Source: Candidatus Omnitrophota bacterium
GTDB taxonomy: Bacteria; Omnitrophota; Gorgyraeia; Zapsychrales; JANLHA01
Direction of reading: 5' to 3'
DNA length: 64,000 bases
NCBI GenBank assembly: GCA_031423615.1
Contig: JANPFV010000106.1
Span: 29 to 64,028 of the forward strand
Of the stretch, positions 12,892 through 61,674 are shown one piece after another. Position 1 is the first letter of the stretch. Each line of letters starts with the position of its first letter. Both the position numbers and the translations under genes were made by a program. The notes beneath the pieces were generated by a model, which saw only the letters and a program-made list of their open reading frames with translations, was not told the origin of the DNA and did not search any database.

Positions 12892-12904
12892 AGAACTCCT
12901 CGCG

Positions 12905-44593: not shown

Positions 44594-45245
44594 GGCGCAC
44601 TCTCAGCGATCCTGCGCTGCTTTTGTTATCACACGGAAAAGACGACGAGACTGTTGAAAAACCCAGAAAGGGGCACAATTTTTCCCAGCCATCCCCGCGG
44701 CACACATTCATAATCAATAAATCCTGGGGTCTTTTATTAAAATACGCTTTTACATTTTTATATTTTTCTAAATGCTCGGCTATGATTTGTTTTTGCATCT
44801 CTTTGTAATTTCTTATTAAAAAAGCAGGCGGAATACCGCTGGCATTGATGTCGGCGGAGAAATATTTTTCATGACTTATACTCCACTCATCTAAGTCCCG
44901 CTCCAAAAGAATAAATTTGCTGCCCGGAAAACGCCGGTCCAATTCCTGATAAAGATCAAAGTCGTGCCACGGGCCGTCGACAAAAGTATCAAACATATTT
45001 GCGACTTCAAAAGTTTCCGTAAAATCGCCTCTTTTGCATTGTTCATAGAGATAAGGGTCCCATCCCTTGCGGGTAAGGGCCAACTTTTTAAAAGCATTGC
45101 CCAGTGACGTGGTCCCTGTTTTGGGTGATCCCACTTCAAAAATTTTATTAAATGTTCTTTGACCCCGGGGCCGATGAAAGGGATCAAAATGAGCCACCTG
45201 CTTGCAAAGGCGCAAATGCTCGATTAAAAATGTTTTCAACTTCAT
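44586..45245 (-). CDS. sulfotransferase family protein (PAPS-dependent)
   Basis: 5'-PSB-like loop GSPKTGTTSL; about 219 aa; overlaps cysC start by 8 nt. Confidence 0.65.
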   Translation of the reverse strand: MKLKTFLIEHLRLCKQVAHFDPFHRPRGQRTFNKIFEVGSPKTGTTSLGNAFKKLALTRKGWDPYLYEQCKRGDFTETFEVANMFDTFVDGPWHDFDLYQELDRRFPGSKFILLERDLDEWSISHEKYFSADINASGIPPAFLIRNYKEMQKQIIAEHLEKYKNVKAYFNKRPQDLLIMNVCRGDGWEKLCPFLGFSTVSSSFPCDNKSSAGSLRVRHG

Positions 45246-46246
45246 AACGCAATCCTTTGTCCGCCATTCTTCAAAGAAAGGTCGGACGCTTCAAGCCATT
45301 TGACAACCCTTAAACCGGCCTGACCGTTGTTCAGCGGTTCCGTTCCCGTGTTAATGCAGTGCACAAAATATTTTGCTTCCTCCTCCAGCGCCTCTTTTCT
45401 CACGATATGCGGAGAGAGGACATCCCCGACACGATAATCGACAAGAATGTCCCGCCTATTATCCGAAGTTTTGATATCCACCCCGGCATCATAAATCTTT
45501 ATCTTTTCATCCGCTTCCACATCATCCCAAACCAGCATTTTTTTCTGCCCGCTTAACAAGATCTGGCGAATTTTCAAAGGGGCCAGCCAATTGAGCCGGA
45601 TTTGCGCAACAAAATTATCCGGATAATACAAAAAAATTGAGGCTAAATTGATTCTCCCCGTCTCAAAGTGATCCACGCCCTGCGAGCTGATCGCCAGAGG
45701 TTTTTCGGCAATCAAATAATCCAGAATCGAAAAATCGTGCGGCGCCAAATCCCAGATCACGTCCACATCATCTTGAAAAGCCCCCAAACGGATCCGGGTC
45801 GAATCATAATAAAAAAGTTTTCCCAAAGTTTCTTCCGCCAGGACTTTTTTAATGCATTTGATGGCGCCCGTAAATAAAAAGGTGTGATCAACCATGATCT
45901 TAAGATTTTTTCTTTGCGCCAAATCAACCAGGATTTGCGCTTGTTTGACTGATAAGGTCAATGGCTTTTCAACAAAAATATGTTTGCCATTTTCCAAGGC
46001 CTCGTGGGCTATCGTAAAATGCGATGAAACCGGGGTGGCAATGAGGACAGCATCAATGTCCGGGGCCTGAATAATATCCCGGTAATTTTTCGTCACCTTG
46101 ACAAAAGAATAACTTTGTTTGGCCTTGGCTAAGTTTTCCTCGACTAAATCACAAATAGTCATGATGACGCATCCGGGCGTGGCGTTAAAATTTCTCACCA
46201 AATTGGGACCCCAATAACCATATCCGATGACACCCAATCTTATCAT
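45242..46246 (-). CDS. Gfo/Idh/MocA-family NAD(P)-dependent sugar oxidoreductase
   Basis: IRLGVIGYGYWGPN Rossmann, EKPL motif; start ATG 46246 with GAGGGGG SD. Confidence 0.8.
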   Translation of the reverse strand: MIRLGVIGYGYWGPNLVRNFNATPGCVIMTICDLVEENLAKAKQSYSFVKVTKNYRDIIQAPDIDAVLIATPVSSHFTIAHEALENGKHIFVEKPLTLSVKQAQILVDLAQRKNLKIMVDHTFLFTGAIKCIKKVLAEETLGKLFYYDSTRIRLGAFQDDVDVIWDLAPHDFSILDYLIAEKPLAISSQGVDHFETGRINLASIFLYYPDNFVAQIRLNWLAPLKIRQILLSGQKKMLVWDDVEADEKIKIYDAGVDIKTSDNRRDILVDYRVGDVLSPHIVRKEALEEEAKYFVHCINTGTEPLNNGQAGLRVVKWLEASDLSLKNGGQRIAL

Positions 46247-46250
46247 AAGA

Positions 46251-47078
46251 TTAAGTCTGCCCCCTCTTATGTTGCCCCAAGGCCATCGCCAAGCCATGTT
46301 TATTGAAAAAATACAAAATATTAAGAATATGAACAATGCTCAATTTCCCGAATTTCTTAACACTGTCTCGCCGGTAGTAATGAACCGCATGAACTTCGGG
46401 GATGTAGTAGACTTTTAATCCATTGATCCGCGCCCGGAAACACCATTCCACATCTTCCAGATAAAAGGGCTGAAAAAGTTTGTAATCTAAACCGCCGATC
46501 TTTTCAATAGCGGATCTTCTCATTAAAAATAAAGCCGAAAGCACCCAGTCCACCGACCGGGTTGTCTTGTGATCGTAGTCCTTCATCAGATATTTCTGCA
46601 CGGTGGAACTATTGGATATTTTCTTGCCGGACTTGATCCAACGAAAGAAATGCGGCAAACGGTTGAAATAAATCAAGGGGGTGGGAAACTGCCGGCAGGT
46701 CAACTGCAAAGTCCCGTCCTCAAAAACCAATTTAGAACTGCTCACCGCGGCATCAGGGTTTTTTTCCATAAAATCAATCATGTAGGCCATGGTGTTGGGC
46801 ATCAATTCGATGTCCGAGTTAAGCAGCAGCACATAGCGCCCGCGGCAATTATTTGTGGCTTCGATATTGTTGTGGATATAACCCAATTTCTTTTCATTGC
46901 GCCTCAATATCACTTCGGGAAAATCCTGAGCAACCATGTGTGCCGTCCCATCCGTTGAAGCATTATCGACGACAATGGTCTCTATAGAATATACAGTTTG
47001 TGACCGCCGTATGGATTCCAGACATTTCTTTAAATGATGCTTTTCATTTGTTCCAACGACAATAATAGACACATCCAC
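46251..47078 (-). CDS. glycosyltransferase family 2
   Basis: VSIIVVGTNE...VVDNASTDGT...LNSDIEL GT-A motifs. Confidence 0.8.
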   Translation of the reverse strand: MDVSIIVVGTNEKHHLKKCLESIRRSQTVYSIETIVVDNASTDGTAHMVAQDFPEVILRRNEKKLGYIHNNIEATNNCRGRYVLLLNSDIELMPNTMAYMIDFMEKNPDAAVSSSKLVFEDGTLQLTCRQFPTPLIYFNRLPHFFRWIKSGKKISNSSTVQKYLMKDYDHKTTRSVDWVLSALFLMRRSAIEKIGGLDYKLFQPFYLEDVEWCFRARINGLKVYYIPEVHAVHYYRRDSVKKFGKLSIVHILNILYFFNKHGLAMALGQHKRGQT

Positions 47079-47105
47079 AGCGTTCTCCTGGATTTTAAGG
47101 ACAGT

Positions 47106-48164
47106 TCACATGCAAATGACCCTGTACCGGCACGACCAGTACAGGCGTCCATAATATTCCGACAATTCCCTTACCGCATATATAAAAAAAGCGGTGATGG
47201 TTTCTTTCCCGGTTAAGGTTGATCCTTTTTTTTGGACTTCTTTTCTGATCTTAAAACAATAATAAAGGCACGCTGACAAAAACATCACCAACAAGAAAGT
47301 CGGCGATATCCAGGCACTGACCGACAGCGCGACGATCAAAAATAGAACTTTTAAAACATTGGTCATCAACACCATCGTCAGGCCCATGTTATTGCGCCAA
47401 TGATAATAATTTCGCGGTAGACAAATAAAAACTTGCCCCCGGAAATGCCTGTCGATATTCACTACCAACCCGCGAGCATAAGAAAATTCCCGTTTGACCA
47501 AAGATCGAAGAGGGATATCTTGCAAGTGATAAACAGCCATGGGAGCATGCCACGCCATGATTTTTCCGCCCGCCTCCACCGCCCGCAGGGTAATATCGAC
47601 GTCCTCACCGGCGATGAATGTTTCATCAAAACCATTAATTTTTCTAAAAAACGCCTTACGGAAAGCGCAGTTAAAGGAAATGATGACTTTTTGATCAAAG
47701 TAATCTTTCTTTCGCTGGATCAGAGATTCCGGAATGTGATACGAAGCCAGCCAAAAAGCCGATAAAAATTTCCCCATAACGGTAGTTGGAGCAAAGGATA
47801 TGACATTCACACCTCCCATGCCGTCTAAATCGTCATCTTTGCTAAAAGCCTGTTTAATACTGCACACCCAAGAAGGAGTCGGGACACAATCCGAATCTGT
47901 AAAAGCCACAATGTCACCCGTGGCCAGAAAAGCCCCTTTATTTCTTGCGGCCGATGGCCCTTTTTTAACTTCGTTGCAAAGAATAATGTTAAGACCAGGA
48001 AATTGTTTCATCGCCTCTTGCACAGTCACCTGGCTTTGATCGGTCGAGTTGTTGTCTACCATAATGACTTCTTCCGGTAACACATCCTGTTCCGCCAAGG
48101 CGTGGATGCATTTTAAAATCGTCTTTGACGCATTAAACATCGGGATCACGACGGATATTTTCAT
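47106..48164 (-). CDS. glycosyltransferase family 2 with C-terminal transmembrane segments
   Basis: KISVVIPMFN...MVDNNSTD...FTDSDCV; 3-4 C-terminal TM helices. Confidence 0.75.
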   Translation of the reverse strand: MKISVVIPMFNASKTILKCIHALAEQDVLPEEVIMVDNNSTDQSQVTVQEAMKQFPGLNIILCNEVKKGPSAARNKGAFLATGDIVAFTDSDCVPTPSWVCSIKQAFSKDDDLDGMGGVNVISFAPTTVMGKFLSAFWLASYHIPESLIQRKKDYFDQKVIISFNCAFRKAFFRKINGFDETFIAGEDVDITLRAVEAGGKIMAWHAPMAVYHLQDIPLRSLVKREFSYARGLVVNIDRHFRGQVFICLPRNYYHWRNNMGLTMVLMTNVLKVLFLIVALSVSAWISPTFLLVMFLSACLYYCFKIRKEVQKKGSTLTGKETITAFFIYAVRELSEYYGRLYWSCRYRVICM

Positions 48165-49420
48165 ATTTTCGCTTCCGACGGTAAAACCGTACGCTTCACA
48201 AAGTGCAGATGGATAAAAGCCAGACAGATCAGAGTCAGAATATCGGCGTAAGCCATCCCCAAGGTCCCCCATTCTTTGACAAAAACAATACTCAGGACAA
48301 AAAATAATGGCAAACCGATCATCAACGCCACAACATCTTTATTCTGCTGATTGGCGGCTATAAGAAATCGGGACCATAAAAAGGAAAGACTCAACGGAAC
48401 AATTTTCCATATCAAAACCTGAATAAACTTTACTGTCGGAAGAAAGGCCGCACCTAAAAAAAGATTGATCAACGTATGCGCCAAAAAATAGACCGACGTG
48501 GCGATCGAAAAACTTACGATCAACATCAAAAAAGACAATCTGGCGAAATAAGAATATATCATTTTATGATTTTTATGTAGAGTTTCAACAATGGTCGGGA
48601 AAGAGGCTGAAACCATGCTGAATATCAAAATGAAACTGACCCGCAGTATCTTTTTTGTCACATTATAGAATCCCACATCCTCAACCGAAACCAACTTTGA
48701 CAAAATGACAACATCGACTTCTAACAGCAGATTGCTCAAAAGATTAATAAGAAAAAAAGCCGGGATCAGCCCCAGTATTTCTTTAAACTTAAAGACCTGA
48801 AAATCCCCCCACCATGAAATCTTTTCCTGTTGTAAAAGATAAGCCAGGAAAACGACACCGACCATTCTCGAGACAATAAAAGCCCCGATAACCGCATTGA
48901 TGTCGTGGCTGAGACTTAACCACCACACGCCCAACACCAACCAGGCCGTCTCTCTGACCAAGGCGGTATAAAAAGCAAATCTCGCTTTTTTTAATCCGAT
49001 AAAAATATTTTCTCCCAATACATTTAAGAAACAGGGAAATAAAACCAGGCTACTCAAATAAACAGATTTCATTATAAGGGGCGAATAATTCAAAATGTTT
49101 CCTATGATCGCCATTAATACTGCACCGACGGCACAGGAAAGCACTCCCAGTAAAATGCCATTCTTTATGAGCCAGCTTCCTTGATCTTGGTCCTTGCCGA
49201 TTTCGCGAATGACAATGGTGTCGTAGCCTAAAATAGATAAATATTGAAATATCGTGCATAAAGCCATGGCCACGGAAAACAAACCCAATGGACCGGGGCC
49301 CAAATTTCTGGCTATAAAAATGGTAATGATTAAGGAAGAACAGGAAAGACTCATGCGAGTCAACAAAATCGAAAAACTATTTTCAAAGAAGGATCCGGAA
49401 TGGATTTTAGGAATGATCAT
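48161..49420 (-). CDS. oligosaccharide flippase (Wzx, MOP/PST family)
   Basis: 419 aa, about 12 TM, polysaccharide-biosynthesis-protein pattern. Confidence 0.7.
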   Translation of the reverse strand: MIIPKIHSGSFFENSFSILLTRMSLSCSSLIITIFIARNLGPGPLGLFSVAMALCTIFQYLSILGYDTIVIREIGKDQDQGSWLIKNGILLGVLSCAVGAVLMAIIGNILNYSPLIMKSVYLSSLVLFPCFLNVLGENIFIGLKKARFAFYTALVRETAWLVLGVWWLSLSHDINAVIGAFIVSRMVGVVFLAYLLQQEKISWWGDFQVFKFKEILGLIPAFFLINLLSNLLLEVDVVILSKLVSVEDVGFYNVTKKILRVSFILIFSMVSASFPTIVETLHKNHKMIYSYFARLSFLMLIVSFSIATSVYFLAHTLINLFLGAAFLPTVKFIQVLIWKIVPLSLSFLWSRFLIAANQQNKDVVALMIGLPLFFVLSIVFVKEWGTLGMAYADILTLICLAFIHLHFVKRTVLPSEAKI

Positions 49421-49438
49421 GCCTTTCTCAAATATTCT

Positions 49439-50083
49439 TTAAGGTTTTCGTGCAATCCCGCATAAAAGCGAAATGGTTTTAAGAATGATTTTAAAATCCA
49501 ACAGCAAAGACCAGTGATCCACATAGTACAAATCCATAGTGACCATGTTCTTATAATCTATGGAACGCCCGCTATTGATTTGCCACAGACCGGTCAGACC
49601 CGACTTGACGTTAAATCTTCTGAGCATATTTTGATTATGATATTTGATTTCATAATCAATGGCGGGCCGGGGGCCCACAAAACTCATGTCGCCTTTTACA
49701 ACATTCCATATTTGCGGCAATTCATCAAGCTTAAACTTTCTTAAAATTCTTCCGCATCGGGTGATCCGTTTCACATTTATTTTTTCATAAACAATGATAC
49801 TGGCTTGTTTTTGTTCTTTGTCTTGCGTCATCAACTGCTCGATCAACTTTCTATGTATCGACTCATCGTTATAGCAATACATAGATCTGAATTTATAACA
49901 TTCAAATTGGCGTTGGTTTTGTCCGACTCTCATCTGTTTAAAAAAAACCGGTCCCCGAGAATCTAATTTTATAGCGACAGCAATCAAAACAAATACCGGC
50001 CACAAAAGCATCAACAGTATAAGGCCCAAACACCAATCAAAGACTTTCTTAATAACTAATTGAATAGATAAATAATTCTTCAT
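49439..50083 (-). CDS. initiating undecaprenyl-phosphate sugar phosphotransferase (bacterial sugar transferase, PglC/WbaP-C type)
   Basis: single N-terminal TM, GPVFFKQMRVG, KFRSM, DELPQ, VGPRP motifs. Confidence 0.85.
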   Translation of the reverse strand: MKNYLSIQLVIKKVFDWCLGLILLMLLWPVFVLIAVAIKLDSRGPVFFKQMRVGQNQRQFECYKFRSMYCYNDESIHRKLIEQLMTQDKEQKQASIIVYEKINVKRITRCGRILRKFKLDELPQIWNVVKGDMSFVGPRPAIDYEIKYHNQNMLRRFNVKSGLTGLWQINSGRSIDYKNMVTMDLYYVDHWSLLLDFKIILKTISLLCGIARKP

Positions 50084-50536
50084 AGATTAATTATCTTTTT
50101 AATTTTATTATGTGTTCACCTTGTTCAATAAGTACAAGCTCAGGGACCGCTGGCTCAAGGACTAAAAACATGGCAGCCATAAGCGATGTCCAGATCTGCC
50201 GGGCCCAAAAAGCAAGGAGAGTAAACCCGCTGACGTCTTTACGATAAAACAATATATTGTGAGGGCATAAAAGGTGCGGCACAAGCCCTTTTCGGTAACG
50301 ATAAAAATACTTAACTGGCAAGGTGATGAAAATTAAGAGCGTGTAGAGCGTTCTTATGAGAGGCTGTTGACAATTTTATTTATACAGCTTTTCAGAGGGA
50401 AATGCAAGAAAAACGCCGTGCTGCCGGCGAGGGGTTTAGTTTTTCAAAACAGGCCGTAATGGAGAATTTGTGTACGACCCAACAGCCCCCCTAATCATCA
50501 TCGAGAATGGGGATTTTTTTGCTATTTTTACAGCCT

Positions 50537-51046
50537 TCAGGGCGTTTTGACTCTAATGGTCTCGCCGACCTTCAATGTCCCTTCCCGCAAAACCTGCGCG
50601 TAAAATCCGCATCGTCCTTTGATAGCATCTTTCAAATGCGGGTCAATCGCATCCAAGACATAACAAGGATGCCGCTCCTTGGTCAATTGCAAAACAACGC
50701 CGCCGGAAAATTTCAAAATCGTTCCCACCGCCATTCTTTGCACATTCATATTACGGACAGTGAGATTTTCGCCGATTGTCCCGCTTACAAGAGAAAATCC
50801 CTCCCGCGATAACTCCTCCAGCACTTCAGCATCCTGAAAACAAACCGCCTGCGCAGGACGATTATGCTTTTCATGATGATGGCCGTCTCCTTCCAAGCCT
50901 TTTAAAAAAATGCGTACCGATGAGACTCCTTTTTTAGGAATTCCTCCCACGGATATGCATATTCCGTCGACAATAGCGCACGGAGCCTTAGACTCACCGA
51001 AAGTCAAACAAACTTTTGGCTCAGTCAGCACATTTTCCATGGCCAT
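50537..51046 (-). CDS. MOSC-domain protein (Moco sulfurase C-terminal-like; YcbX/YiiM type)
   Basis: about 170 aa; GENLTV...G core; longer ORF start (51079) would overlap nasA-like 3' end by about 20 nt. Confidence 0.65.
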   Translation of the reverse strand: MAMENVLTEPKVCLTFGESKAPCAIVDGICISVGGIPKKGVSSVRIFLKGLEGDGHHHEKHNRPAQAVCFQDAEVLEELSREGFSLVSGTIGENLTVRNMNVQRMAVGTILKFSGGVVLQLTKERHPCYVLDAIDPHLKDAIKGRCGFYAQVLREGTLKVGETIRVKTP

Positions 51047-51059
51047 GTTTTCTTTGAGA

Positions 51060-53267
51060 TTAAAGATTCTTTGCAACATGCGCGGCGCTCAATTTGTAAG
51101 ACGGCTGCCGGGAATAAGGATCAAAAGCCGGGAACGTCAGTTTGTTCGTTTCTTCGTAATGCATGGGAAGAAAAATTTGTCCGGGTTGAATGGTCGCCAT
51201 GATTTTCGCCTGCGCTTTGATCCGTCCCCGTTTTGTCGTGATAAAAACCCATTGATGGGGTTGGATCTTTAACCGCTGGGCATCGAAGGGATTGATCTCG
51301 ACGTATAAATTCTGAGGATACGTTTTTCTCAGAACCGGAGATTTCCCCGTCCGGGTTTGCGTATGCCACTGCGAACTGGTTCCCCGGCCGGTCAAGAGCA
51401 CAAACGAATAAAACTCATCGGTTTCCTCCGGCGGCGGACGGATGGGATCAAATAAGAATCTGGCCTTGCCGTCGTGATGATAAAAAACACCATCCGCCAA
51501 CAGATGGCGTTCCGTTTCTATCAGTTCTTCATTTTCCCGCAAAGGCCACTGTATTCCACCATGATTATCAATCATGCGATAATCTTTAATACCCATTATG
51601 TCGGCGGGTGTTCCTTTCGAAATCTTTTTTAAGATCTGAAAAACCGCTTCCGGCGATGACCACTCCTTAAAAAGCTCTTCACAACCCCAATAACGGGCAA
51701 TCGCTTTGAAAATATAAAAATCAGCCAAGGCCGCTCCCGGAGCCGGTGCGACTTTTTTAAACAAACCGATGCGCCGTTCGGAATTGATCACCGTCCCGCC
51801 TTTTTCTCCCCAGCCGGCGGCCGGAAGAACAAGGTCCGCCATTTGCGCGGTTTCCGTCGTGTGATACATATCCTGCACGACGAGAAATTCCAATGACTTG
51901 AGATGTTCGCGAAATTCACTTTGATTAATCCAAGAATGCGATGGGTTTGTGGCAATGATCCACAGTCCTTTGATTTTATTAACGGGTATGCTCTCGAGGA
52001 TTTGATCATACGCTAAACTGTTGCGATCGGGAATCAGAAGAGTATCCATATTGAGAATAGCGGCAATCTTGGTTCGATGCTCGGCATTGAGAAAATCATG
52101 GCCGCCCAAAAGATTGGTGGTGTTGCTGAACAATCGCGATCCCATGGCATTGCATTGACCGGTGATGGAATTGGCGCCAGTGCCGGGCCGTCCGATGTTT
52201 CCTGTCATCAGGGCCAGATTAATCAGCGACTGCGCCGTCCGCACACCTTCATATCCCTGATTGACACCCATGGTCCACCAAAACGAAACCCGTTGACCGG
52301 CCGCAATGATTGCCGCAAATTCATTTAACTGCAAAACACTCAAGCCCGTCGAGCGGCTGACACTTTCGGGGGTAAACGTTTTAACATGAATTTTAAAAGC
52401 TTCAAAATCAACCGTATGCTGGGCAATATATTTTTCATCAATTGAGCCGCGCTCAATTAAAATATTCGCCAATCCATAAAAAAGAATAAGATCGGTCTTC
52501 GGCAGCAAAGCATAATGTTTCGTTGCCGCCATTGCCGTCTCAGTCTTACGTGGATCGACAACAATAATTTGTGGATTATTTTTATTGCGGCTGACCCGCT
52601 GCCACATGATGGGATGCGCGATGCAGGGATTAGCCCCGACAAAAACAAGGACATCACTCTCCTCAAGATCTTTGTAACTAAACGGCGGCGCATCAAAACC
52701 GAACGAGTGTTTATACGCCACGGCCGCGGTGGCCATGCATTGGCGCGTATTGCCGTCTCCGTGGAGCAGGCCCATGCCGAATTTGGCCAAAGCTCCCAAG
52801 AGCGCCATTTCCTCGGTGCAGATCTGCCCGGTACTTAAAAAAGCCACGCTCTCTTTGCCATATTTGTCCTGAATCCTTTTAAAATTTTCCACAAAACTTT
52901 TTAAGGCCGTGTCCCAATCCACCGGCACTAACTTCCCCGAACGGTCTTTACGATAAGGGGTTGTTGCGCGATCGTGCGCCTTTAATGGAGTCAGCGCTTC
53001 CCATCCCTTAGGACAAGCCTCGCCGAGGTTGACCGGATAATGGACAGTCGGCGTTAAATTGACCGGTTCATTATTCTTAAGATGCACCGTCAGGGAACAA
53101 CCCGTCGAGCAATAACCGCAAACCATGGTGGCTGTCCGGTCAGGGAGAAGACGTTGCGGCAGTTTTCCTAAACCCAAGGCCGACGATTCCAACGCCAATT
53201 CCTTTGTCAAACGCCCGTCCTTTTGCAACATGATATCGTTAAACTTTTGTCTTAGATTTTCTTTCAT
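51060..53267 (-). CDS. molybdopterin (bis-MGD) oxidoreductase, assimilatory nitrate reductase catalytic subunit-like (NasA/NarB type), no Tat signal
   Basis: N-terminal 4Fe-4[10 protein letters not shown]...C motif, MopB domains I-IV, 735 aa; no twin-arginine motif; embedded in nirBD-narK operon. Confidence 0.8.
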
Positions 53268-54940
53268 GACATCCTTGCTCCTGGCATTTTAAGCGGCACG
53301 ACGGCCCGAAAAAATAAATAGCGCTCCAAAAATTCCGCAATCAACGACAAGAGACAAATGAAAACCACGATCCAAATGAGAGTATGGATTTCTAAAGATG
53401 CATAGGCCGACTGAAGATACAGCGGCAGAATCACTCCACCGAGTGTACCCAGAAGAAAACGCCAAAACGTCACGTAGGGAAAGGTCTCCTTCATTAGAAA
53501 AGCGGTTTTCTTTAAAGACGTCCACTGTCGCTCTTGCAAATGCCCAAAAAGACTTGCCTCACTGAGCAATTTAACCGCGGTCAAAATCGCCAAAACCTCG
53601 CAGCCCGTTTTCCCCAGAGCCTCCATTAATGAAGAAATATCAATTCCCGTCGATAAAGCAACGCTGACCGCAACCAAAAGGGTACTGGAAATCCCGGTGA
53701 TCGCTGTGGTCAAATAAAATTTAATAGCCGTCATCGGATGGTCCCAAAAAGGACGGCGCGTCACCTGATAAACCATGATGGAACACAAAACTCCCAATAA
53801 TCCGGTTGCCGACGTTAAAATAGCAAAGACATCCTGTATCTGCCGTAAATAATTTTTTTCCCAATGACCCATCCACCGTTCAACAAAATACGGCCAGATC
53901 GTCAGCGCATAACAGGCGGCAAAGAACGCGAATAGGCCAAAGACCACAATCTCGCGGCTTAACCACGATTTTCTCAATCCCAGCACCGCGCGAAAAGCAT
54001 ACAACGGCCGTCCCAAATGAAACACACTGACCCCCAAGGCCATCACCCCGACAACCAAGGCCATCAGAGCATGATACGAAATCATCTTAACGCGGATGGG
54101 ATCAGCGAGAACATGCCGCAAAAACAATCCCGCTCCAAAAGCCCCGACGGAAAACTGGGTCAAAACCAACATCACAATCAAAGGACTATGCGAATGTTCT
54201 GGGGTAACGGTGTACGAATCATTGGACTCCATATTCTCCGGGAATTTTTCTTTTCGCAAATAACGGGTGGTCGGTAAACTGTACCGGGAATCCGGTGCAT
54301 CCGGAATTTGCACAAAGTGATTTGGGTCATTTCTAACCGCCTGAACATCAACCAACGTAACCCGAATCGCCGCCGTAGGACAAGCGCGAACACAAGCCGG
54401 AGCTTCGCCGACGTTCAAGCGGCTGATACACATATCGCATTTGTGCACAATACCTTTTTTCTTATGATATTTGGGAACATCATAAGCGCAGGTAAAGGTG
54501 CAGTACTGACAACCGATACATTGATCATCCAAATGTTTTACAATTCCCGTCGCAGTATCTTTTTCATACGCATTGACCGGACAGCCGTTCAAACATGCGG
54601 GATCAAGACAGTGATGACAGGCGGTCGTGATATGCTGAATGACCGGAGATTGGGTGGTCCCGCCGTGAATTTGCCCGACGGAACGCCAGATTTCATCTTC
54701 ATCGAGGCCATTTTCATTATGACAGGCCGTGATGCAAGCCTTACATCCCGAACATTGGTCCAAATTTACTTCAAACGCATACTGCTGCCCCGGGCCGGGA
54801 GTTGTTTTGGGAATCAATTCCTTATAAAGACTCTGCGCTGCGGGCAGTTGCTTTAAATCATGGGCTATAGAAAATTTTTCTACTGCACTTAGATCCTGCT
54901 GCTCTTTTAAAAAATCGTCCATTGAATTTTGCTTGATCAT
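53264..54940 (-). CDS. fusion of 4x[4Fe-4S] ferredoxin (DmsB-like) with polytopic DmsC/NrfD-like membrane anchor
   Basis: four Cys clusters ([11 protein letters not shown]; [14 protein letters not shown]; [11 protein letters not shown]; CDMCISR...CVRACP) then about 300 aa with about 8 TM helices. Confidence 0.7.
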
Positions 54941-56292
54941 GATGAAACAGCGACGGTTGGTGTAATGACTTTAAGACGGTGGCTTAATGACCCCGCCGCC
55001 GCAAAAGCCTGCTTGGTTTCATTTTCTTCTTGCAATGAAAACTTAACCAGCCAAACCGCAAAAGAAATAATACTGACAATCATGCCCAGATAAAAAAGCC
55101 CTTGACCATAACTCATCGCATCGCTACGAAATAAAAAACCAAATAAAACCCCTCCCACATTTCCGCCGGCGCCAATGATCCCGGCCACCGCCCCGATGGC
55201 TTTGGGCTTAAGAAAAGGGACCACGGAATATGTCGCGCCATTGGCCATTTTAATAAACAGGGCAAAAACCATCATCATGGCGATCGCCGCCGGAAGAATG
55301 GTCATCTGCGAAAAAACCATCAGCGCCAAGCCTCCCACAAATAACGAAATTCCCAAAAACTGAACCCTGGCTTTCAGTCCCCACTTGCGGGCACAAAAAT
55401 CCGAAATAATCCCGCCTAAAGCGCGGGCAAAAAGATTCATCATACCGAAAATCCCGGCGACCAAACCCGCCGCGGTGATCGATAAAGAAAACCTGTCCGT
55501 ATAATAAAGAGCCGCCATATTATTGATTGTCAACTCCACTCCAAAACTTGCGGCGTAAATAAAAAATAAAGCCCAGACCCGTCGGTCTTTTAGGGCTTCA
55601 CGAAATGAACCTTTGGCCGCAGCCTTAGACGGCATTTTTCCCTGTGCTCGCAATTCCTCAATATTTCCCTCGGGAAAATCTTTCGTGCCCCGATAATAAA
55701 CGATTCCCATAACAAAAAGTAGGATCCCAGGAATCATCATGCTCAATCGCCAGCCCCAAAAATGATTGATCCCTAAATTTAACATCCCCGTCAAAATCAA
55801 CGGCATCATCATCTGCGTCATGCCGCCGCCCATGTTTCCCCATCCCGCAGCCGCGCCATTGGCCGTGCCCACGCAATTGGGAGCAAACATCACCGAAGTA
55901 TGATACTGCGTGATCACAAACGAAGCGCCGATGGCCCCGATGGCCAAACGAAACAGAAGAAAACTTTCATAATTGTGTGCCAAACCAATCCCCATGATAG
56001 GCATGGATCCCAGCAATAAAAGAGTTGTATATGCTCGTCGGGCGCCGATCCGGTCACATAACCATCCCATCAGCAAACGCACGACAATGGTGATCGCAAC
56101 CGAAGCGATCATGGTATTACCGATTTGGGTTTTCGTTAAGCCCAAATCGTCACGGACCAAGGGCATCAAGGGCGCGATAGCAAACCAACCGAAAAAACTT
56201 AAAAAAAACGCAAACCACGTCAGATGAAAAGTCCTCATCGCAACGGATTTGAAATCCCATAAATTGACCCGCAGCGCTTTTTGACCGGACAT
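54937..56292 (-). CDS. narK: nitrate/nitrite transporter (MFS, NNP family)
   Basis: 451 aa, 12 TM, NNP signature regions (GxxxNxG-like); operon context. Confidence 0.8.
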   Translation of the reverse strand: MSGQKALRVNLWDFKSVAMRTFHLTWFAFFLSFFGWFAIAPLMPLVRDDLGLTKTQIGNTMIASVAITIVVRLLMGWLCDRIGARRAYTTLLLLGSMPIMGIGLAHNYESFLLFRLAIGAIGASFVITQYHTSVMFAPNCVGTANGAAAGWGNMGGGMTQMMMPLILTGMLNLGINHFWGWRLSMMIPGILLFVMGIVYYRGTKDFPEGNIEELRAQGKMPSKAAAKGSFREALKDRRVWALFFIYAASFGVELTINNMAALYYTDRFSLSITAAGLVAGIFGMMNLFARALGGIISDFCARKWGLKARVQFLGISLFVGGLALMVFSQMTILPAAIAMMMVFALFIKMANGATYSVVPFLKPKAIGAVAGIIGAGGNVGGVLFGFLFRSDAMSYGQGLFYLGMIVSIISFAVWLVKFSLQEENETKQAFAAAGSLSHRLKVITPTVAVSS

Positions 56293-56295
56293 AGG

Positions 56296-56655
56296 CTACT
56301 CCTGTTGATTGTCTTTAGAGATCTTTAACGCCCTGCATTCCACCATCATTTTTCCTTCTAAAACCCAGGCTTTAAAAACATGGACACATTCATGCCCTTC
56401 GCCGCCTTGGCCGGTTTCAAGGTCGAATTTATGACCATGCAAGGGACAAACCACGTGGCCGTCGCCTATGATTCCGTCGGAAAGCGGTCCCTGCCGGTGG
56501 GGACAGCGGTCTTCGACGGCAAAAACTTTTCCATCGCGGGCGCGAAAAACAGCAATGACCTGGTCATTGATCACAAAACGCCACCCTTGCCCGACGGGAA
56601 ATTGCTCAATAGCCCCCAAATCAACAGCCCTGGGTTTGGACATCGTGTCACCCAT
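56296..56655 (-). CDS. nirD: nitrite reductase small subunit (Rieske-like)
   Basis: CPHRQGPL...CPLHGHKF Rieske-type motifs; alternative start at 56643 just after nirB stop. Confidence 0.85.
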   Translation of the reverse strand: MGDTMSKPRAVDLGAIEQFPVGQGWRFVINDQVIAVFRARDGKVFAVEDRCPHRQGPLSDGIIGDGHVVCPLHGHKFDLETGQGGEGHECVHVFKAWVLEGKMMVECRALKISKDNQQE

Positions 56656-59161
56656 TGTTTTCCGCCTCTTGTAAAGTTTTAATCAACTGCGGTCCCGCAA
56701 ACTGCGCCGGATCAACCGGAACATCAGCTTCCTTCCAAGGGTCCTTATAAGCGTCTACCGCTTCCTGAATACGGTGGTCAAGCTGACTGCAAATTCCCAA
56801 TGAATCTTCAATCAGAATTCCTTTTAAAACATCAATGCCGATCCGCTCGGCAAAACCATAGGTCCGCTCCAAATATTTGCCATGCTCGCGGTAATACTGA
56901 ATAAAGCGGCCGATGATTTTGAGCGCTTGCTCGTGGCTGTCGACGGTGCACAGCAGATCGCCTTTGCGCACCGTGGCTCCGGCCGCTCCGCCGATATAAA
57001 TTTCCCAAAAACCGCCTTCAATGGCCACCGCGCCAATGTCTTTCACATAAGCCTCAGAACAGTTGCGCGGACAACCCGCTGTTGCTAATTTCATTTTGTG
57101 GGGAGATTCGATCCCCTGAAAACGATGCTCTATTTTTTGCGCCAGCGCAATCGCATCGCCCAAACCATAACGACAAAAATCTGTTCCTACGCAACTCTTG
57201 CACGTGCGAAAAGATTTTGTATACGCATGTCCGCTGGGCATCCCGAGGTCTTTCCAAATATTTGGCAAGTCTTCCTTCTTGACACCGAGGAGGTCAATGC
57301 GCTGGCCGCCGGTGATTTTGACCATCTTGACCTGATATTTGACCGCCGCCTGAGCAATCGCCATCAATTCTTGGGGTGTTGTGACCCCGCCGTAAATCCG
57401 CGGCACGACCGAAAAAGTCCCGTCCTTTTGAATATTGGCGTGCACGCGATCATTAATAAAACGCGCGTCGCGCTGATCCTCATAGTCCTTGGGCCAAATG
57501 GTTTTCAACAAAGAGGCCAATCCCACCTTACTGTCGGTGTCTTCCTTGCCTTCGGCCAATTCCGCAAAAATCGCGCTGACCGACTTTAAATTTCGGACTT
57601 TGATTTCCGCAACCAACTGGGATTTTTCCAAGGGAATCCCGGGGGCATAATAATGTTCGCTGGGGTCATAAGAAACTTTTCCTAATTTGCTTTCAATAAT
57701 CTGGGCAATCAAACCCCGGCAAGACCCGCAACCCTTCCCCGCTTTTGTTCTTGCCCCGACGCTGGCGACAGTTTCACACCCGCTATCGATCGCATTGAGA
57801 ATTTTACCTTTCACAACTCCGTTACAATTACAAACCTGGGCATGATCCGGCAAATCCGCGACTTGAATAAATGCGGTGCCTTTAACTTCACCAAATAAAA
57901 GTTCAGAACGATTCTCAGCCACCGCTTGCTCATTTAAAAACATCTGGATCAAAACATCCGCCGCAGCCGCATCTCCCAGCAAAATCGCACCATGCAATTT
58001 ATTGTCGCGGATGATCAATTTTTTATAAATCCCCCGATGAGGCTCGCGGTAAACAACGACCTCATCGGTGTCAGCACCAGCCTCTTTCTCACCCAAAGAC
58101 ATTAAATCGACTCCCATCACTTTGAGTTTTGTCCCGATTTTGGAACCCCCATAAGCGGCCTGTGGATTAAATCCGCTGATCACATCCGCAACAACCCTCG
58201 CCTGCGCCCAAATCGGCTCGATTAGCCCATAAAGTTTCCCGCGGTGCTCAACACATTCCCCTACTGAAAAAATATGGGGATCATTGGTCCGCATTTGATC
58301 ATCACAGACAATCCCTTTGTTGACTTTTATTCCACTGTCCTGGGCGACTTCTATAATCGGGCGAATCCCGGCGCTGACGACGACCATGTCCGCCGGTATC
58401 GTTGATCCGTCGGAAAAAATAAGCGAATGGACTTTTCCGTCAACCTTATGGATTTTTGCGGTCTTGCGGTCGGTCAAAACGGTTAAGCCCATGCCTTCCA
58501 TAGTCCGTTTTAAAATCTGGCTGGATTCGACATCCAGTTGAGCGGGCATCAACTGTGGTGCGGCTTCAACAATGGTCACTTCCAAATGATGGGTCATAAG
58601 CCCGCGCGCGGCCTCCAGTCCCAACAATCCGCCGCCGATGACCACCGCCCGGCGGCATTGTTTGGCATAAGCGGCGATATGATCACAATCATCAATGGTG
58701 CGAAATAAAAACGTTCCCTCGCCGGAAAATCCTTCCATGGGCGGCACAAAAGGACGCGAACCGGTGGCCATAATCAAATAGTCATAGGTTTCTTTAATAT
58801 CTTTGATTACAAAAGCATTGTCATCATGGACCGCATAAGCTGCGGCCCGCGGCTGCAGCGGCCGACCCGTCACGATTTGCTCTTGCGTGTTGATTTTGAC
58901 CGCTTTGACACCGGCGTGTAGAACAATATTATTTTCTTGATACCAACTCAAAGGATTAATAAAAATATCACCGGCCTCCTGGGTTTGATTAAGCACATTG
59001 CTCAACAAAATACGATTATAATTGCCGTAAGGCTCGGCCCCGAACATGACAAAGTCAAATTGGCCCGGCGTTCTTCCGATAATTTCTTCTACCACCCTTG
59101 CCCCGGCCATGCCATTGCCGATCACCACGATTTTTTTCTTAGTCATATTTATCATTTTCAT
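56648..59161 (-). CDS. nirB: NAD(P)H-dependent nitrite reductase large subunit
   Basis: 837 aa; N-terminal FAD/NAD Rossmann (VVIGNGMAG), BFD-like 2Fe-2S, sirohaem/4Fe-4S sulfite-nitrite reductase domain (CxxxxxC...CxxxC). Confidence 0.9.
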   Translation of the reverse strand: MKMINMTKKKIVVIGNGMAGARVVEEIIGRTPGQFDFVMFGAEPYGNYNRILLSNVLNQTQEAGDIFINPLSWYQENNIVLHAGVKAVKINTQEQIVTGRPLQPRAAAYAVHDDNAFVIKDIKETYDYLIMATGSRPFVPPMEGFSGEGTFLFRTIDDCDHIAAYAKQCRRAVVIGGGLLGLEAARGLMTHHLEVTIVEAAPQLMPAQLDVESSQILKRTMEGMGLTVLTDRKTAKIHKVDGKVHSLIFSDGSTIPADMVVVSAGIRPIIEVAQDSGIKVNKGIVCDDQMRTNDPHIFSVGECVEHRGKLYGLIEPIWAQARVVADVISGFNPQAAYGGSKIGTKLKVMGVDLMSLGEKEAGADTDEVVVYREPHRGIYKKLIIRDNKLHGAILLGDAAAADVLIQMFLNEQAVAENRSELLFGEVKGTAFIQVADLPDHAQVCNCNGVVKGKILNAIDSGCETVASVGARTKAGKGCGSCRGLIAQIIESKLGKVSYDPSEHYYAPGIPLEKSQLVAEIKVRNLKSVSAIFAELAEGKEDTDSKVGLASLLKTIWPKDYEDQRDARFINDRVHANIQKDGTFSVVPRIYGGVTTPQELMAIAQAAVKYQVKMVKITGGQRIDLLGVKKEDLPNIWKDLGMPSGHAYTKSFRTCKSCVGTDFCRYGLGDAIALAQKIEHRFQGIESPHKMKLATAGCPRNCSEAYVKDIGAVAIEGGFWEIYIGGAAGATVRKGDLLCTVDSHEQALKIIGRFIQYYREHGKYLERTYGFAERIGIDVLKGILIEDSLGICSQLDHRIQEAVDAYKDPWKEADVPVDPAQFAGPQLIKTLQEAENNG

Positions 59162-59167
59162 TCTCCT

Positions 59168-59215
59168 TAAAACAGAAAAACCCCACCTTCCCGCTCATCC
59201 GACGGGAAAATGGGG
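59168..59215 (-). terminator. intrinsic terminator/attenuator hairpin in nirB leader, immediately upstream of the SD
   Basis: minus-strand RNA: CCCCAUUUUCCCG-UCGGAUGAG-CGGGAAGGUGGGG (13-bp stem incl. 2 GU) followed by UUUUUCUGUUUUAAGGAGAAUG. Confidence 0.6.
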
Positions 59216-59408
59216 CGTCAATGCCCAAGAACCACCCATAAAAAATCCCTGAGCCACGCGTACTGCCAATGCGTCGGTTCAGGGCATCAAAGTCCTTTAT
59301 CTGTTTCTTCCGCGAAACAACCTTATGACAACACTGCCTAAGGTTCCATGATTGTTTCTTTATAAAACATTCCTTCGACAGCGTCAATACCTAATTTTGT
59401 AGGTAGGA

Positions 59409-60272
59409 TCAGGGAAAGAAATAAATGCGCAAATATTCCCCCAGATCAATGCCGCGCTTAGCAATTCCCATTTTCTTGCGGATATGATTTCGATGATGCT
59501 CAACAGTCCGCACCGAGGTGGATAAAAGATCAGCCATGTCCTTGGTCGTCAGGCCATTTTTTAACATTTTGCAAATCTCAATCTCCCGGGAGGATAACCG
59601 CCACTTTTTGTCGGTCAATTTTACGGAAAAATCATCGGCAATGTCTCGCAGGGATTTTTCCAAAAGCAAAACATTTCGCCGGTCCAAAGCTGTTCCGTCC
59701 CGCTTTAAGCGCTCCAGCAATGGCCACACGGTTTGTTCAAGATTTTTCTGAATACTGTCCCGCAACTGACGCTTCTCGACATCCCGTCGATCGAGCCAAC
59801 CAAAAAGGACCGCATTGTTTTTTTCCACGGCCAGCTTTTGCCGGCCGAGTTTTTGTTTCGTAAGCCACAAGGTGCGTGCCATTTGGTAGCGTTCCGTAAT
59901 ATCCACAACACTCCCCCGCGTATTGATCAGTTTTCCCGCCTTGTCAAACCGCGCCGAAGCATTCAGCAAAACGTGGACCTGCCGGCCACTTTTGGTGACC
60001 ATGGTATAATTTAAATTCCGGATCTCTCCTGCGGTATTGATTTTTTGCCAATGCTGTTCAAACCGAACAGCTTCCGCCGGAATAATAAGATCTGACCAGC
60101 TTTTTTTCCCTACAATTTCTTCTTTGCGGTAGCCCAGCATATCCAATTCGGTCTTGTTTATGTCGATGATTTTGCGGTCTGGTCCGAACGCATGAAATCC
60201 GATGGGCGCATGATCAAAAAAATCCAGCAAATATTTACGATCAGAATTATTCAAACTTTTATTTGTCGGCAT
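59409..60272 (-). CDS. PAS-domain + LuxR/GerE-type HTH transcriptional regulator
   Basis: N-terminal PAS (FHAFGPDRKIIDINKTELDMLGY...), C-terminal LSSREIEICKMLKNGLTTKDMADLLSTSVRTVEHHRNHIRKKMG HTH. Confidence 0.75.
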   Translation of the reverse strand: MPTNKSLNNSDRKYLLDFFDHAPIGFHAFGPDRKIIDINKTELDMLGYRKEEIVGKKSWSDLIIPAEAVRFEQHWQKINTAGEIRNLNYTMVTKSGRQVHVLLNASARFDKAGKLINTRGSVVDITERYQMARTLWLTKQKLGRQKLAVEKNNAVLFGWLDRRDVEKRQLRDSIQKNLEQTVWPLLERLKRDGTALDRRNVLLLEKSLRDIADDFSVKLTDKKWRLSSREIEICKMLKNGLTTKDMADLLSTSVRTVEHHRNHIRKKMGIAKRGIDLGEYLRIYFFP

Positions 60273-60452: not shown

Positions 60453-60962
60453 TTATTTCTTAAAACCATGAATATCGATAGTCTCTTTGCCGTCTTTCAT
60501 GACAATCTCCATTTCATATCCATCCATCATATTAAACGTTTTCAGAAAATCCAGTGGATCGTCACTAGCAAGGTTTTGTTGAGCATGCGATGCGTACATC
60601 AATTTTATTTTCTTTGAGGTGATCCTTTCGATCCGGGCCCCCTCAAAAATCTCCTGCCCTTTTCTTTTATCCTCGGGAAGTTGAGCAATAAATTCTTTTA
60701 ACTGTTCAACATTTTGGGGCATTTCTTTCTTGGCCCCATAATACAAACTGATCAATGATAGGCTGGCGACGGCAGGCTCAAGAGTTTGCGTCATGACAAC
60801 TTTGCCAAATTCTGCCAAAGCATTATTATCATGAGTGTATTGAATGGCGCCGCTTTTCTTATCCAAAACAACTAAGTATCCAACAGAAAACATACTAAGA
60901 AATTTGGGGCTAAAGTAAACATACCAACTATCCGGATACTTGAGTTTGTGGCCCTCCCTCAT
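60453..60962 (-). CDS. hypothetical protein (no recognizable domain), in lower-GC islet
   Basis: ORF 179 aa (170 aa from first ATG); no SD; AT-richer than flanks. Confidence 0.35.
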   Translation of the reverse strand: MREGHKLKYPDSWYVYFSPKFLSMFSVGYLVVLDKKSGAIQYTHDNNALAEFGKVVMTQTLEPAVASLSLISLYYGAKKEMPQNVEQLKEFIAQLPEDKRKGQEIFEGARIERITSKKIKLMYASHAQQNLASDDPLDFLKTFNMMDGYEMEIVMKDGKETIDIHGFKK

Positions 60963-61072
60963 GGCCGTGTGAAAAAAATTGGGCCTAATCAAGCGGAGCC
61001 AAAACGTTCTGCTATAGCATAGGCTTTAAAATAGCGAAGCAAGACGTTGCACGCGTTTCCTCTTTATTCAAA

Positions 61073-61606
61073 TTAAGTTCTTACTTTTGCATCCTCGATA
61101 CAGTAAGCAAGAGCGATTTCCATCTTCAATTGCTCATCATTTATCACGGTAAGCCAATCCCAACAACATTTGGTGTATTCTAAGGAGTTTGTAAAATCAT
61201 CGCACATGATCTGCGGAGAATCGCGGGCAATAATGAGCTCTTCCTTTATAAAGAATTTTTTTCGCTTCTCTCCTGCCTTCAACACGGAGCCGAACTTCTC
61301 CACAAACGCAGCAAGGAGCTTCAATGGTGATAATCGGTCTATATTCGCGATCATAATATTGGGATAAATCTTAAATGCTGCGGCAACCAGCAACGTATCG
61401 TCATCATAGTCATGGGCCTCAATGAGCCAATAAAATGGTTTCGACCCCAATGAATCTTTTTTTGTGTAGACCCGAATCGTTCTGCCGATAAATTCAATAA
61501 TCTCTTCAGCGTCCTTGTCTCTGATAGCCGCAATGATTTGAGATTCAGTGATTTCGGAAGACCGATTTATCTTTATTTTGAGTATTGCGGGCAGTAAAAT
61601 TTTCAT
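61073..61606 (-). CDS. hypothetical protein (no recognizable domain), in lower-GC islet
   Basis: ORF 182 aa (TTG) or 177 aa from ATG 61606; weak SD. Confidence 0.35.
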   Translation of the reverse strand: MKILLPAILKIKINRSSEITESQIIAAIRDKDAEEIIEFIGRTIRVYTKKDSLGSKPFYWLIEAHDYDDDTLLVAAAFKIYPNIMIANIDRLSPLKLLAAFVEKFGSVLKAGEKRKKFFIKEELIIARDSPQIMCDDFTNSLEYTKCCWDWLTVINDEQLKMEIALAYCIEDAKVRT

Positions 61607-61674
61607 ACATCCGACTTTCAATTGTGATGATCACAACGCATCTGATCAATCTAAAAAACAAATTCCATTCCCTC

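Follow-up and report, generated by a model that had tools for sequence, protein, structure and literature searches.

Textbook assimilatory nitrate reductases are soluble enzymes that use NAD(P)H or ferredoxin/flavodoxin as the electron donor. In the described Nas systems, NAD(P)H electrons are delivered via NasB/NasG, Flp or NasB-type diaphorases, and ferredoxin or flavodoxin serves as the donor in the others (PMC4724949, and textbook accounts). The complexes with an NrfD-family subunit were listed by Calisto and Pereira as Nrf, Psr, ACIII, Dms, Hyd-2, Arr, Ttr, Qrc, Sre, Nhc, Dsr, Mcc, Fqo and Soe, with no nitrate reductase among them (PMC8076601), and a similar list was given by Duarte et al. 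(PMC6303296). In the survey of Calisto and Pereira, SoeABC is the only complex of this family treated as inverted (PMC8076601); a cytoplasm-facing placement has been proposed for it, in which the anchor is inverted and the quinone site lies at the N-side (PMC8076601, PMC6335251). According to Wells et al., no member of the Fdh/Nas/Aio/Nap clade of molybdoenzymes occurs with canonical four-cluster or anchor subunits (PMC7331816). Here, we describe an operon from a Candidatus Omnitrophota bacterium, located in a stretch of 64,000 nucleotides (GenBank assembly GCA_031423615.1, contig JANPFV010000106.1, positions 29 to 64,028 of the forward strand; hereafter the window, numbered from its first letter). 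The operon comprises six co-directional minus-strand genes, namely nirB, nirD, a narK-like gene, a gene for a fused iron-sulfur (Fe-S)/membrane protein (the fusion), a gene for a molybdenum (Mo) catalytic subunit, and a MOSC-domain gene. Together, the fusion and the Mo subunit probably constitute a two-gene, membrane-bound, cytoplasm-facing and quinol-linked nitrate reductase that serves assimilation.

The fusion (53264-54940, minus strand; 558 aa) contains matches to PF13247 (Fer4_11, 3.6e-20) and PF04976 (DmsC, 8.7e-18, at residues 252-544), and in an alignment its whole length is colinear with E. coli DmsB followed by DmsC. Its Fe-S domain (residues ~53-198; 54347-54784, minus strand) carries four Cys groups for four [4Fe-4S] clusters (C63/66/69/73, C108/111/116/120, C141/144/147/151 and C168/171/183/187), and all 16 cysteines are invariant in an alignment of 82 fusion sequences. 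Against the TIGR02951 dmsB model this domain scored 129 bits, under the cut-off of 214, and the score of the fusion against the NarH profile was only 41 bits. The DmsC-type domain (residues ~252-545; 53306-54187, minus strand) has eight helices with a predicted N-in/C-in topology. Eight hydrophobic cores were observed by hydropathy in an alignment of 18 sequences, and the AlphaFold model of the fusion (predicted local distance difference test, pLDDT, 89.8; predicted template modelling score, pTM, 0.88) contains eight long helices across residues 252-545. In Foldseek searches, the N-terminal half was found to be like FdnH, PsrB and ArrB, and the C-terminal half like the NrfD-family subunits ActC and PsrC. 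The initial annotation of this gene as a DmsB-like four-cluster protein fused to a DmsC/NrfD-like anchor with about eight transmembrane helices is therefore borne out by the 16 cysteines, the PF04976 match and the helices seen by both hydropathy and AlphaFold.

The anchor domain retains the residues of a quinol site. E. coli DmsC is reported to lose quinol oxidation once H65 is replaced, and its E87 to matter for coordinating quinone/quinol (PMC8076601). Residues S62, H65, S82 and E87 of the DmsC quinol site align with S305, H308, S325 and E330 of the fusion, among which H308 and E330 are invariant in 82 of 82 fusions, S325 is likewise invariant and S305 is nearly so. The same alignment contains only two invariant His residues in the membrane domain, which argues against a NarI-like di-haem anchor.

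The orientation of the module was assessed from export signals and from the distribution of positively charged residues. No twin-arginine translocation (Tat) or Sec signal was found on the Mo subunit or the fusion of the window, and none that was convincing among 119 homologues of the former and 120 of the latter. A loose RR-x-hydrophobic-hydrophobic pattern ahead of the first Cys motif is present in one of the 119 Mo homologues and two of the 120 fusion homologues, and the 12-residue hydropathy maximum of these three sequences is 0.4-0.5, compared with 1.97 for the E. coli NapA signal and 1.57 for that of DmsA. The Mo subunit had been described from the start as lacking a twin-arginine signal, and this holds across its relatives, as the single RR match has no hydrophobic stretch behind it. 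In the loops of the anchor, the mean K+R count is 14.4 on the Fe-S side versus 3.4 on the opposite side, and the Fe-S side is the richer one in 82/82 fusions. At the aligned positions of E. coli DmsC the bias is reversed, with 3 on the Fe-S side versus 8 on the other. E. coli DmsC presents DmsB to the periplasm. Taken together, the inverted charge bias and the lack of export signals indicate an N-in/C-in fusion whose Fe-S domain and quinol site are predicted to lie at the cytoplasmic face, the inverse of canonical DmsBC, which agrees with the side of the membrane proposed initially.

The Mo subunit (51060-53267, minus strand; 735 aa) is a catalytic subunit of the molybdenum-bis(pyranopterin guanine dinucleotide) (Mo-bisPGD) type, with matches to PF00384 (5e-62), PF01568 (4e-29) and PF04879 (1.2e-9). 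The N-terminal Fe-S motif of the NasA/NarB type, noted in its first description, is present as C50-x2-C53-x3-C57-x27-C85 (the FS0 [4Fe-4S] motif; 53013-53120, minus strand) according to a motif scan and the PF04879 match. It is preceded by an N-terminal extension (residues 1-49; 53121-53267, minus strand) with the pattern Q-x-x-G-x-L-T-x-E-L...G-L-G-K-L-P-x-R-L-x-P-D. Among the homologues, this extension of 35-50 residues is family-specific, conserved and non-hydrophobic, with a mean 12-residue hydropathy maximum of 0.61 in the 119 sequences scored. Its identity as a Tat signal was rejected for want of hydrophobicity, and it may instead form a docking arm on the Fe-S domain. The active-site pair Cys177-Met178 corresponds in the alignment to Cys140-Met141 of Desulfovibrio desulfuricans NapA, and the Arg of the AMGS-R-LFS motif, which is present in 12 of 12 family members examined, aligns with R354 of the same enzyme. 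The active-site motifs also align with those of Klebsiella and Sinorhizobium NasA.

Profile scores placed the Mo subunit near several families without reaching the cut-off of any. It scored 477 against Fdh-alpha (TIGR01591, cut-off 666), 428 against NasA_Halo (NF041323, cut-off 1000), 427 against NasC (NF047855, cut-off 1100), and 313 and 295 bits against the NapA equivalogs (cut-offs 904 and 931). Since every score is below its NCBIfam cut-off, the substrate assignment relies on the active-site residues and the gene context. The best matches in the PDB were an F420-dependent formate dehydrogenase at the top, D. desulfuricans NapA and FdhF-type enzymes. A neighbour-joining tree (694 columns, DmsA as the root, 60 bootstraps) was built with 12 family members from at least eight phyla and with reference sequences other than Bacillus NasC and cyanobacterial NarB; a reference labelled 'Bacillus NasC' proved to be a YjgC-type formate dehydrogenase and was rejected. 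The 12 members, with 62-82% identity to the window protein, form a single clade in 60 of 60 bootstraps. This clade lies within the NapA/Nas/Fdh superclade, apart from both the Klebsiella/Sinorhizobium NasA clade and the periplasmic NapA enzymes, so the question of its placement raised by the first reading was answered in favour of a separate lineage. The window protein shares 32-33% identity with Klebsiella and Sinorhizobium NasA, 30-33% with NapA, 28-33% with formate dehydrogenases, 33-35% with Hymenobacter and Staphylococcus enzymes and 22% with DmsA. From these data we infer that the Mo subunit reduces nitrate in the cytoplasm and represents a clade of its own, related to NapA and Nas. In source annotations, its homologues are called 'assimilatory nitrate reductase catalytic subunit' by JGI and sometimes 'anaerobic selenocysteine-containing dehydrogenase'.

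The pairing of the two genes is conserved across distant lineages. In a conservation scan with one genome per species, at least 594 species-level genomes were confirmed as carriers (594 of the 600 candidates among the matches listed). They belong to Planctomycetota, Omnitrophota, Myxococcota (many of them Sorangium), Verrucomicrobiota, Acidobacteriota (Vicinamibacterales), Poribacteria and Fibrobacteria, and the closest relatives of the window, among the matches listed, are metagenome-assembled genomes (MAGs) of Omnitrophota. The best 120 fusion matches all contained both domains, with lengths of 514-589 aa and identities of 49-63%. For synteny, 80 loci were kept, of which 78, from at least seven phyla, extended far enough; the Mo gene lies downstream of the fusion gene on the same strand in 78/78, with a gap of less than 400 nt in 76. 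Approached from the Mo side, the fusion gene was immediately upstream in all three cases (P0196, P0216 and P0237). The co-occurrence of the fused gene with nasA-type homologues, proposed initially as a survey, is thus consistent in both directions. Pairwise distances of the fusion and the Mo subunit are correlated at r = 0.93 (partial r 0.84), compared with 0.78 and 0.75 for the correlations with NirB. Among the 44 well-flanked loci, defined by at least 5 kb on both sides, 43 contained nitrate or nitrite assimilation genes, with NirB in 32, a NirA/CysI-type enzyme in 11, NarK in 23, NrtABC in 3 and a CysJ-like flavoprotein in 4. In locus L092 the pair stands without an adjacent nitrite reductase, and in L093 it is accompanied by a CysJ-like gene and a NIR_SIR gene. 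As the pair is constant while the types of nitrite reductase and transporter vary, the fusion and the Mo subunit appear as the invariant core, and the rest is interchangeable.

According to the proposed mechanism, nitrate would enter via the NarK-like transporter (NrtABC in other genomes) and be reduced to nitrite at the Mo subunit, and NirBD, or a NirA/CysI-type enzyme elsewhere, would convert the nitrite to ammonium for assimilation. Quinol would give up its electrons at the H308/E330 site, close to the anchor's cytoplasmic face, and these would pass through the four clusters of the fusion to FS0 and on to the Mo-bisPGD of the Mo subunit, whose N-terminal arm probably aids docking on the Fe-S domain. 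Nitrate assimilation would in this way take the electrons for its first step from the quinone pool and not from NAD(P)H or ferredoxin, both of which would be spared, and electrons from NADH could first traverse the proton-pumping complex I. With potentials of about +420 mV for nitrate/nitrite and about -75 mV for menaquinone, electron transfer from quinol to nitrate is thermodynamically favourable. Because the quinol and nitrate sites would both be on the N-side, the simplest scheme is electroneutral. A more speculative and rather improbable variant is that the inverted DmsC domain may release the two quinol protons to the periplasm via an NrfD-family path. Nitrate reduction would then consume cytoplasmic protons while the quinol protons exit on the other side, and the reaction would be electrogenic with up to 2 H+ per 2 e-. 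Candidate residues for such a path are the conserved, membrane-embedded K457, E461, E536, E539 and R540 in transmembrane helices (TM) 6 and 8. This arrangement would mirror QrcABCD, for which charge separation has been shown (PMC6303296). If the proton path were real, the module would be an assimilation/respiration hybrid that Planctomycetota, Verrucomicrobiota, Acidobacteriota, Myxococcota and Omnitrophota operate under oxic conditions.

The donor of the Mo subunit has to be weighed against a second route within the same operon. The initial annotation regarded the fusion as the only candidate redox partner encoded there, which was overstated, as NirB and the Rieske-bearing NirD are homologous to NasB/NasG and form another possible donor. 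In Paracoccus, NasB/NasG are proposed to pass NADH electrons to NasC (PMC4724949). The Rieske ligand set of the window NirD is complete in a motif scan (CPH...CPLH; 56437-56505, minus strand), so the protein is NasG-like and could carry electrons along a NirB-NirD-Mo route. The search for alternative partners otherwise came out as first supposed: no other Fe-S, flavodoxin, ferredoxin or diaphorase gene was found in the 64-kb window, Fe-S motifs are confined to the operon, and the other large open reading frames (ORFs) are unrelated (glycosyltransferases, an ABC-F ATPase, RF3, pyruvate kinase and others). An NADH-dependent Nas enzyme, with electrons running from NADH to the FAD of NirB, the Rieske centre of NirD/NasG and then Mo, and with the fusion as a tether or secondary route, would account for the presence of nirB and nirD in the operon and for the retained Rieske ligands, and the NasB-NasG-NasC scheme provides a precedent. 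We nevertheless regard it as unlikely, since the pair persists without a nearby NirB (a NirA/CysI-type enzyme takes its place in 11 of the 44 well-flanked loci, and L092 and L093 are individual examples) and the fusion and the Mo subunit co-vary much more tightly with each other than either does with NirB. Both observations suggest that NirB/NirD is not the general route, though it may still act in the operon of the window. In addition, a mere tether would not be expected to keep 16 invariant cysteines and an invariant quinol site.

The remaining alternatives concern the physiological role, the substrate and the location of the enzyme. The module could be a quinol:nitrate oxidoreductase mainly for dissimilation or redox balancing and not dedicated to assimilation, in effect a cytoplasmic counterpart of NarGHI without haem, with NirBD acting in detoxification or ammonification. 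Its donor would in that case be the quinone pool of respiration, enterobacteria also employ NarK-type transporters and NirBD for dissimilatory nitrate ammonification (textbook), and the closest relatives of the window are the Omnitrophota MAGs mentioned above. This reading is about as improbable as the NADH-dependent one, because the context in 43 of the 44 well-flanked loci is of the assimilatory type (NrtABC, NirA/CysI-type enzymes, CysJ-like flavoproteins, NirBD) and the carriers include Sorangium and many Planctomycetota, which are aerobic heterotrophs. That the enzyme acts on formate, chlorate, selenate, an S- or N-oxide or some other compound, with an incidental nitrate-gene context, is very unlikely. 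It would fit the best NCBIfam score, in which Fdh-alpha (477) lies slightly over NasA_Halo and NasC (~427) with all of them below cut-off, as well as the top PDB match to an F420-dependent formate dehydrogenase. The linkage to nitrate and nitrite genes in 43 of 44 loci speaks against it, as do the active-site residues: formate dehydrogenases have U/C followed by H or Q at the Mo-ligand position and no Arg at the position of NapA R354, whereas the Mo subunit has Cys-Met in place of Sec/Cys-His and the Arg occurs in 12/12 members. On these residues, the identity of the Mo subunit as a formate dehydrogenase was rejected. Finally, canonical DmsABC, PsrABC and NapA are periplasmic, and the rare loose RR matches (1/119 and 2/120) could be taken as a cryptic Tat signal, or as a hint of hitch-hiking export, in a periplasm-facing complex like DmsABC. 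We give this hardly any credence and rejected periplasmic placement on signal and charge-bias grounds: the RR matches lack an h-region (0.4-0.5 versus 1.6-2.0 for E. coli DmsA/NapA), neither protein could ferry the other across the membrane, the K+R bias puts the Fe-S side in the cytoplasm in 82/82 fusions, and domain scans found no NapD, DmsD or TorD-type chaperone gene in the operon.

Several considerations weigh against a quinol-linked, cytoplasm-facing assimilatory nitrate reductase, in addition to the second possible donor formed by NirB and NirD. Both the Mo subunit and the fusion fall under every curated NCBIfam cut-off. The function of the module is read here from the genes, the putative physical contact of its two proteins from synteny and co-variation, and its orientation from the positive-inside rule, which holds only statistically. 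The pairing of the fusion with the Mo subunit was not found described in open-access full text, a scope that leaves the subscription literature outside. Even with these points, a quinol-linked assimilatory enzyme is the reading that we consider probable.

The other genes of the operon conform to nitrate assimilation. The nirB gene (56648-59161, minus strand; 837 aa) encodes the large subunit of an NAD(P)H-dependent sirohaem nitrite reductase (Pfam Pyr_redox_2, Fer2_BFD, NIR_SIR_ferr and NIR_SIR; TIGR02374 822.8 bits, cut-off 578), and it is followed by nirD for a small NasG-like Rieske protein (56296-56655, minus strand; Rieske 1.4e-17; TIGR02378 69, cut-off 75) and by the gene for the NarK-like MFS nitrate/nitrite transporter (54937-56292, minus strand; MFS_1 6.6e-36; TIGR00886 306.2, cut-off 311.7). 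All five genes of the order first annotated, nirB-nirD-narK-fusion-Mo, were found on the minus strand in their stated places, and their domain matches exceed chance by far. Some details of that description required correction. Its span of 51060-56292 left out nirB and nirD, both of which belong to it, and overlaps of 4 nt, ascribed to all the junctions, occur only at narK/fusion and fusion/Mo; the overlap is 8 nt for nirB/nirD and 20 nt for Mo/MOSC, and 3 nt lie between nirD and narK. The MOSC-domain gene itself (50537-51079, minus strand; 180 aa; PF03473 1.5e-15) had been overlooked as the sixth gene. It occupies the same position in the closest relatives (L002, L003 and L005), and in another lineage a MobA-like NTP_transf_3 gene is found in its place (L092, 10189-10827). 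The MOSC and MobA-like genes would have an appended role in cofactor maturation, possibly in Mo sulfuration or guanylylation. None of the nap accessory genes (napD, napB, napC, napGH) was found in the 64-kb window.

Directly upstream of the operon, a gene for a PAS/LuxR(GerE)-type regulator was identified (59409-60272, minus strand; PAS_4 4.5e-14, GerE 2.8e-11). The 261-nt nirB leader (59150-59410, minus strand; folding z = -4.2) contains a terminator-like hairpin (59180-59216, minus strand) with a 15-bp stem including 8 GC pairs, followed by the U-run TTTTTCTGTTT, and this hairpin ends ~20 nt short of the nirB Shine-Dalgarno sequence and ATG. A promoter-like TTGACG-17 nt-TATAAA was observed upstream of the hairpin at ~59358-59386. 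The hairpin may be the terminator of the regulator gene, a nitrate-responsive leader attenuator, or both; NasR/NasT antitermination is the comparison for the attenuator. A scan of the whole window against Rfam returned no family matches. A second terminator-like hairpin lies ~110 nt past the MOSC gene (50414-50429, minus strand; 5 GC pairs, then TTTTTCTTGC) and probably marks the end of the operon. Directly downstream of the operon is a polysaccharide-synthesis cluster (44048-50083, minus strand) with a sugar transferase, a flippase-like gene, glycosyltransferases, a Sulfotransfer_4 gene and an APS (adenosine 5'-phosphosulfate) kinase, which suggests a sulfated exopolysaccharide as its product. 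Three ORFs in the window had no Pfam match at E <= 1e-5 (17923-20244, 60453-60992 and 61073-61621, minus strand; 773, 179 and 182 aa). In other genomes, an Alginate_exp (AlgE-like) outer-membrane beta-barrel gene was observed beside the pair in 12 of the 44 well-flanked loci, mostly of the Planctomycetota type (for example L093, 4773-6347, and L094, 4238-5860), and it is a candidate outer-membrane channel for nitrate or nitrite. L094 also encodes NirB and NirD as a single 997-aa fusion (11584-14577; Pyr_redox, BFD, NIR_SIR and Rieske).

If the proposed function is correct, membrane quinol, and not NADH or ferredoxin, is probably what many bacteria use to reduce nitrate for growth. A third, quinol-linked and membrane-bound donor class would then stand beside the NAD(P)H- and ferredoxin/flavodoxin-dependent assimilatory nitrate reductases, and an electron donor could be named for 'orphan' nasA-type genes in the carrier phyla. 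The cost of growth on nitrate would change as well, because NADH electrons may pass complex I first. The module would further contradict the published statement that four-cluster and anchor subunits never occur with members of the Fdh/Nas/Nap clade (PMC7331816), and next to SoeC the NrfD/DmsC catalogue would gain its second inverted entry (PMC8076601). In some source annotations, the fusion is named 'formate dehydrogenase iron-sulfur subunit' or 'DMSO reductase anchor subunit'. Given these misleading names, metagenomic inventories of the nitrogen and carbon cycles that depend on gene names may misassign the fusion/Mo module.

Compared with the soluble Nas enzymes (Klebsiella NasA, Paracoccus/Bradyrhizobium NasC, NarB and Bacillus NasC), the module shares a cytoplasmic Mo-bisPGD subunit with an N-terminal [4Fe-4S] cluster and a Cys ligand, encoded together with nirBD or nirA and nitrate transporters. 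It differs in having a membrane-integral Fe-S/DmsC fusion as the conserved partner where those enzymes have a soluble donor, and its Mo subunit, at 32-33% identity to NasA, belongs to a separate clade, scores below the NasA/NasC cut-offs and carries its own N-terminal extension. The closest protein outside the family is encoded on plasmid p1 of Cetobacterium somerae (43% identity; sister in 60/60 bootstraps). It has the same RxCMAT and AMGSRLFS signature and likewise no signal peptide, but it is without the N-terminal extension and has no membrane anchor nearby; a 135-aa 4Fe-4S dicluster protein, an FAD-dependent oxidoreductase and a TDT-family transporter are encoded alongside (L083, 7980-12697). 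The Cetobacterium operon is of a soluble, cytoplasmic, nitrate-reductase-like kind with an NAD(P)H-type electron supply, for which the NCBI annotation is generic only, and it resembles the clostridial cytoplasmic NarA-NarB-NarC nitrate reductase. A soluble electron supply in the closest outgroup suggests that the fusion/Mo family exchanged such a supply for the membrane module. NarGHI likewise sits in the membrane, passes electrons from quinol to nitrate, has its active site in the cytoplasm and includes a four-cluster subunit. Its NarI, however, is a di-haem cytochrome b: quinol oxidation takes place on the periplasmic side, and the electrons are carried across the membrane as a redox loop, whereas the fusion anchor lacks the haem ligand pattern, and NarG has an Asp ligand and belongs to a distant clade. 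NapA differs by its twin-arginine signal and nap accessory genes, neither of which was found with the Mo subunit. The difference from described Nas and Nar/Nap systems that was claimed at the outset is thus upheld by the separate clade, the membrane fusion partner and the lack of such a complex in two surveys. Two publications considered as prior descriptions were rejected as dealing with other systems, namely ACIII-like clusters (PMC4013037) and eukaryote-type Nas (PMC10732223).

On the side of the membrane partner, the fusion resembles E. coli DmsABC and YnfFGH (DMSO and selenate reductases) in its four Cys groups, eight helices and quinol-site residues, with ~28-32% identity to the DmsB/DmsC and YnfG/YnfH pairs. 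A tblastn search of the fusion against plasmids returned such separate DmsB/DmsC or YnfG/YnfH pairs (at most ~32% identity) and single Fe-S subunits, with no fused homologue and no SoeBC. DmsABC differs in that DmsA carries a Tat signal, DmsAB is periplasmic, the charge bias of the anchor is opposite and the genes are unfused; DmsA, with 22% identity to the Mo subunit, belongs to another clade. More generally, complex iron-sulfur molybdoenzymes (CISM) of the DmsABC/PsrABC type also combine a four-cluster protein with a haem-less NrfD/DmsC anchor of at least eight helices and a quinol site by the Fe-S subunit, but they have a Tat-exported, P-side catalytic subunit of the DmsA, PsrA or NarG lineages. 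As judged from its genes, the module departs from them in three respects: a catalytic subunit of the NapA/Nas/Fdh clade, an Fe-S/anchor fusion in one polypeptide and a cytoplasmic orientation.

By analogy, the closest functional counterpart is SoeABC of Allochromatium vinosum, Aquifex aeolicus and Ruegeria pomeroyi, which likewise combines a signal-less Mo-bisPGD subunit, a four-cluster subunit and a haem-less NrfD/DmsC-type anchor. SoeC is listed with the DmsC-type quinone-site positions His65/Glu87/Ser82 (PMC8076601), and these are conserved in the fusion as well. SoeABC oxidises sulfite and reduces quinone, whereas the fusion/Mo module would oxidise quinol and reduce nitrate; SoeABC is made of three separate proteins, whereas here the Fe-S and anchor parts form one polypeptide and the catalytic subunit is of the NapA/Nas/Fdh clade. 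The likeness is drawn from the published description of SoeABC, and the Mo active site and gene context indicate nitrate and not sulfite as the substrate. Since precedents exist for every part and for the cytoplasm-facing arrangement, the module is not a categorically new kind of system; it is a widespread and apparently undescribed variant in which a Nas-type enzyme is paired with a DmsBC-type quinol module that is both fused and inverted.

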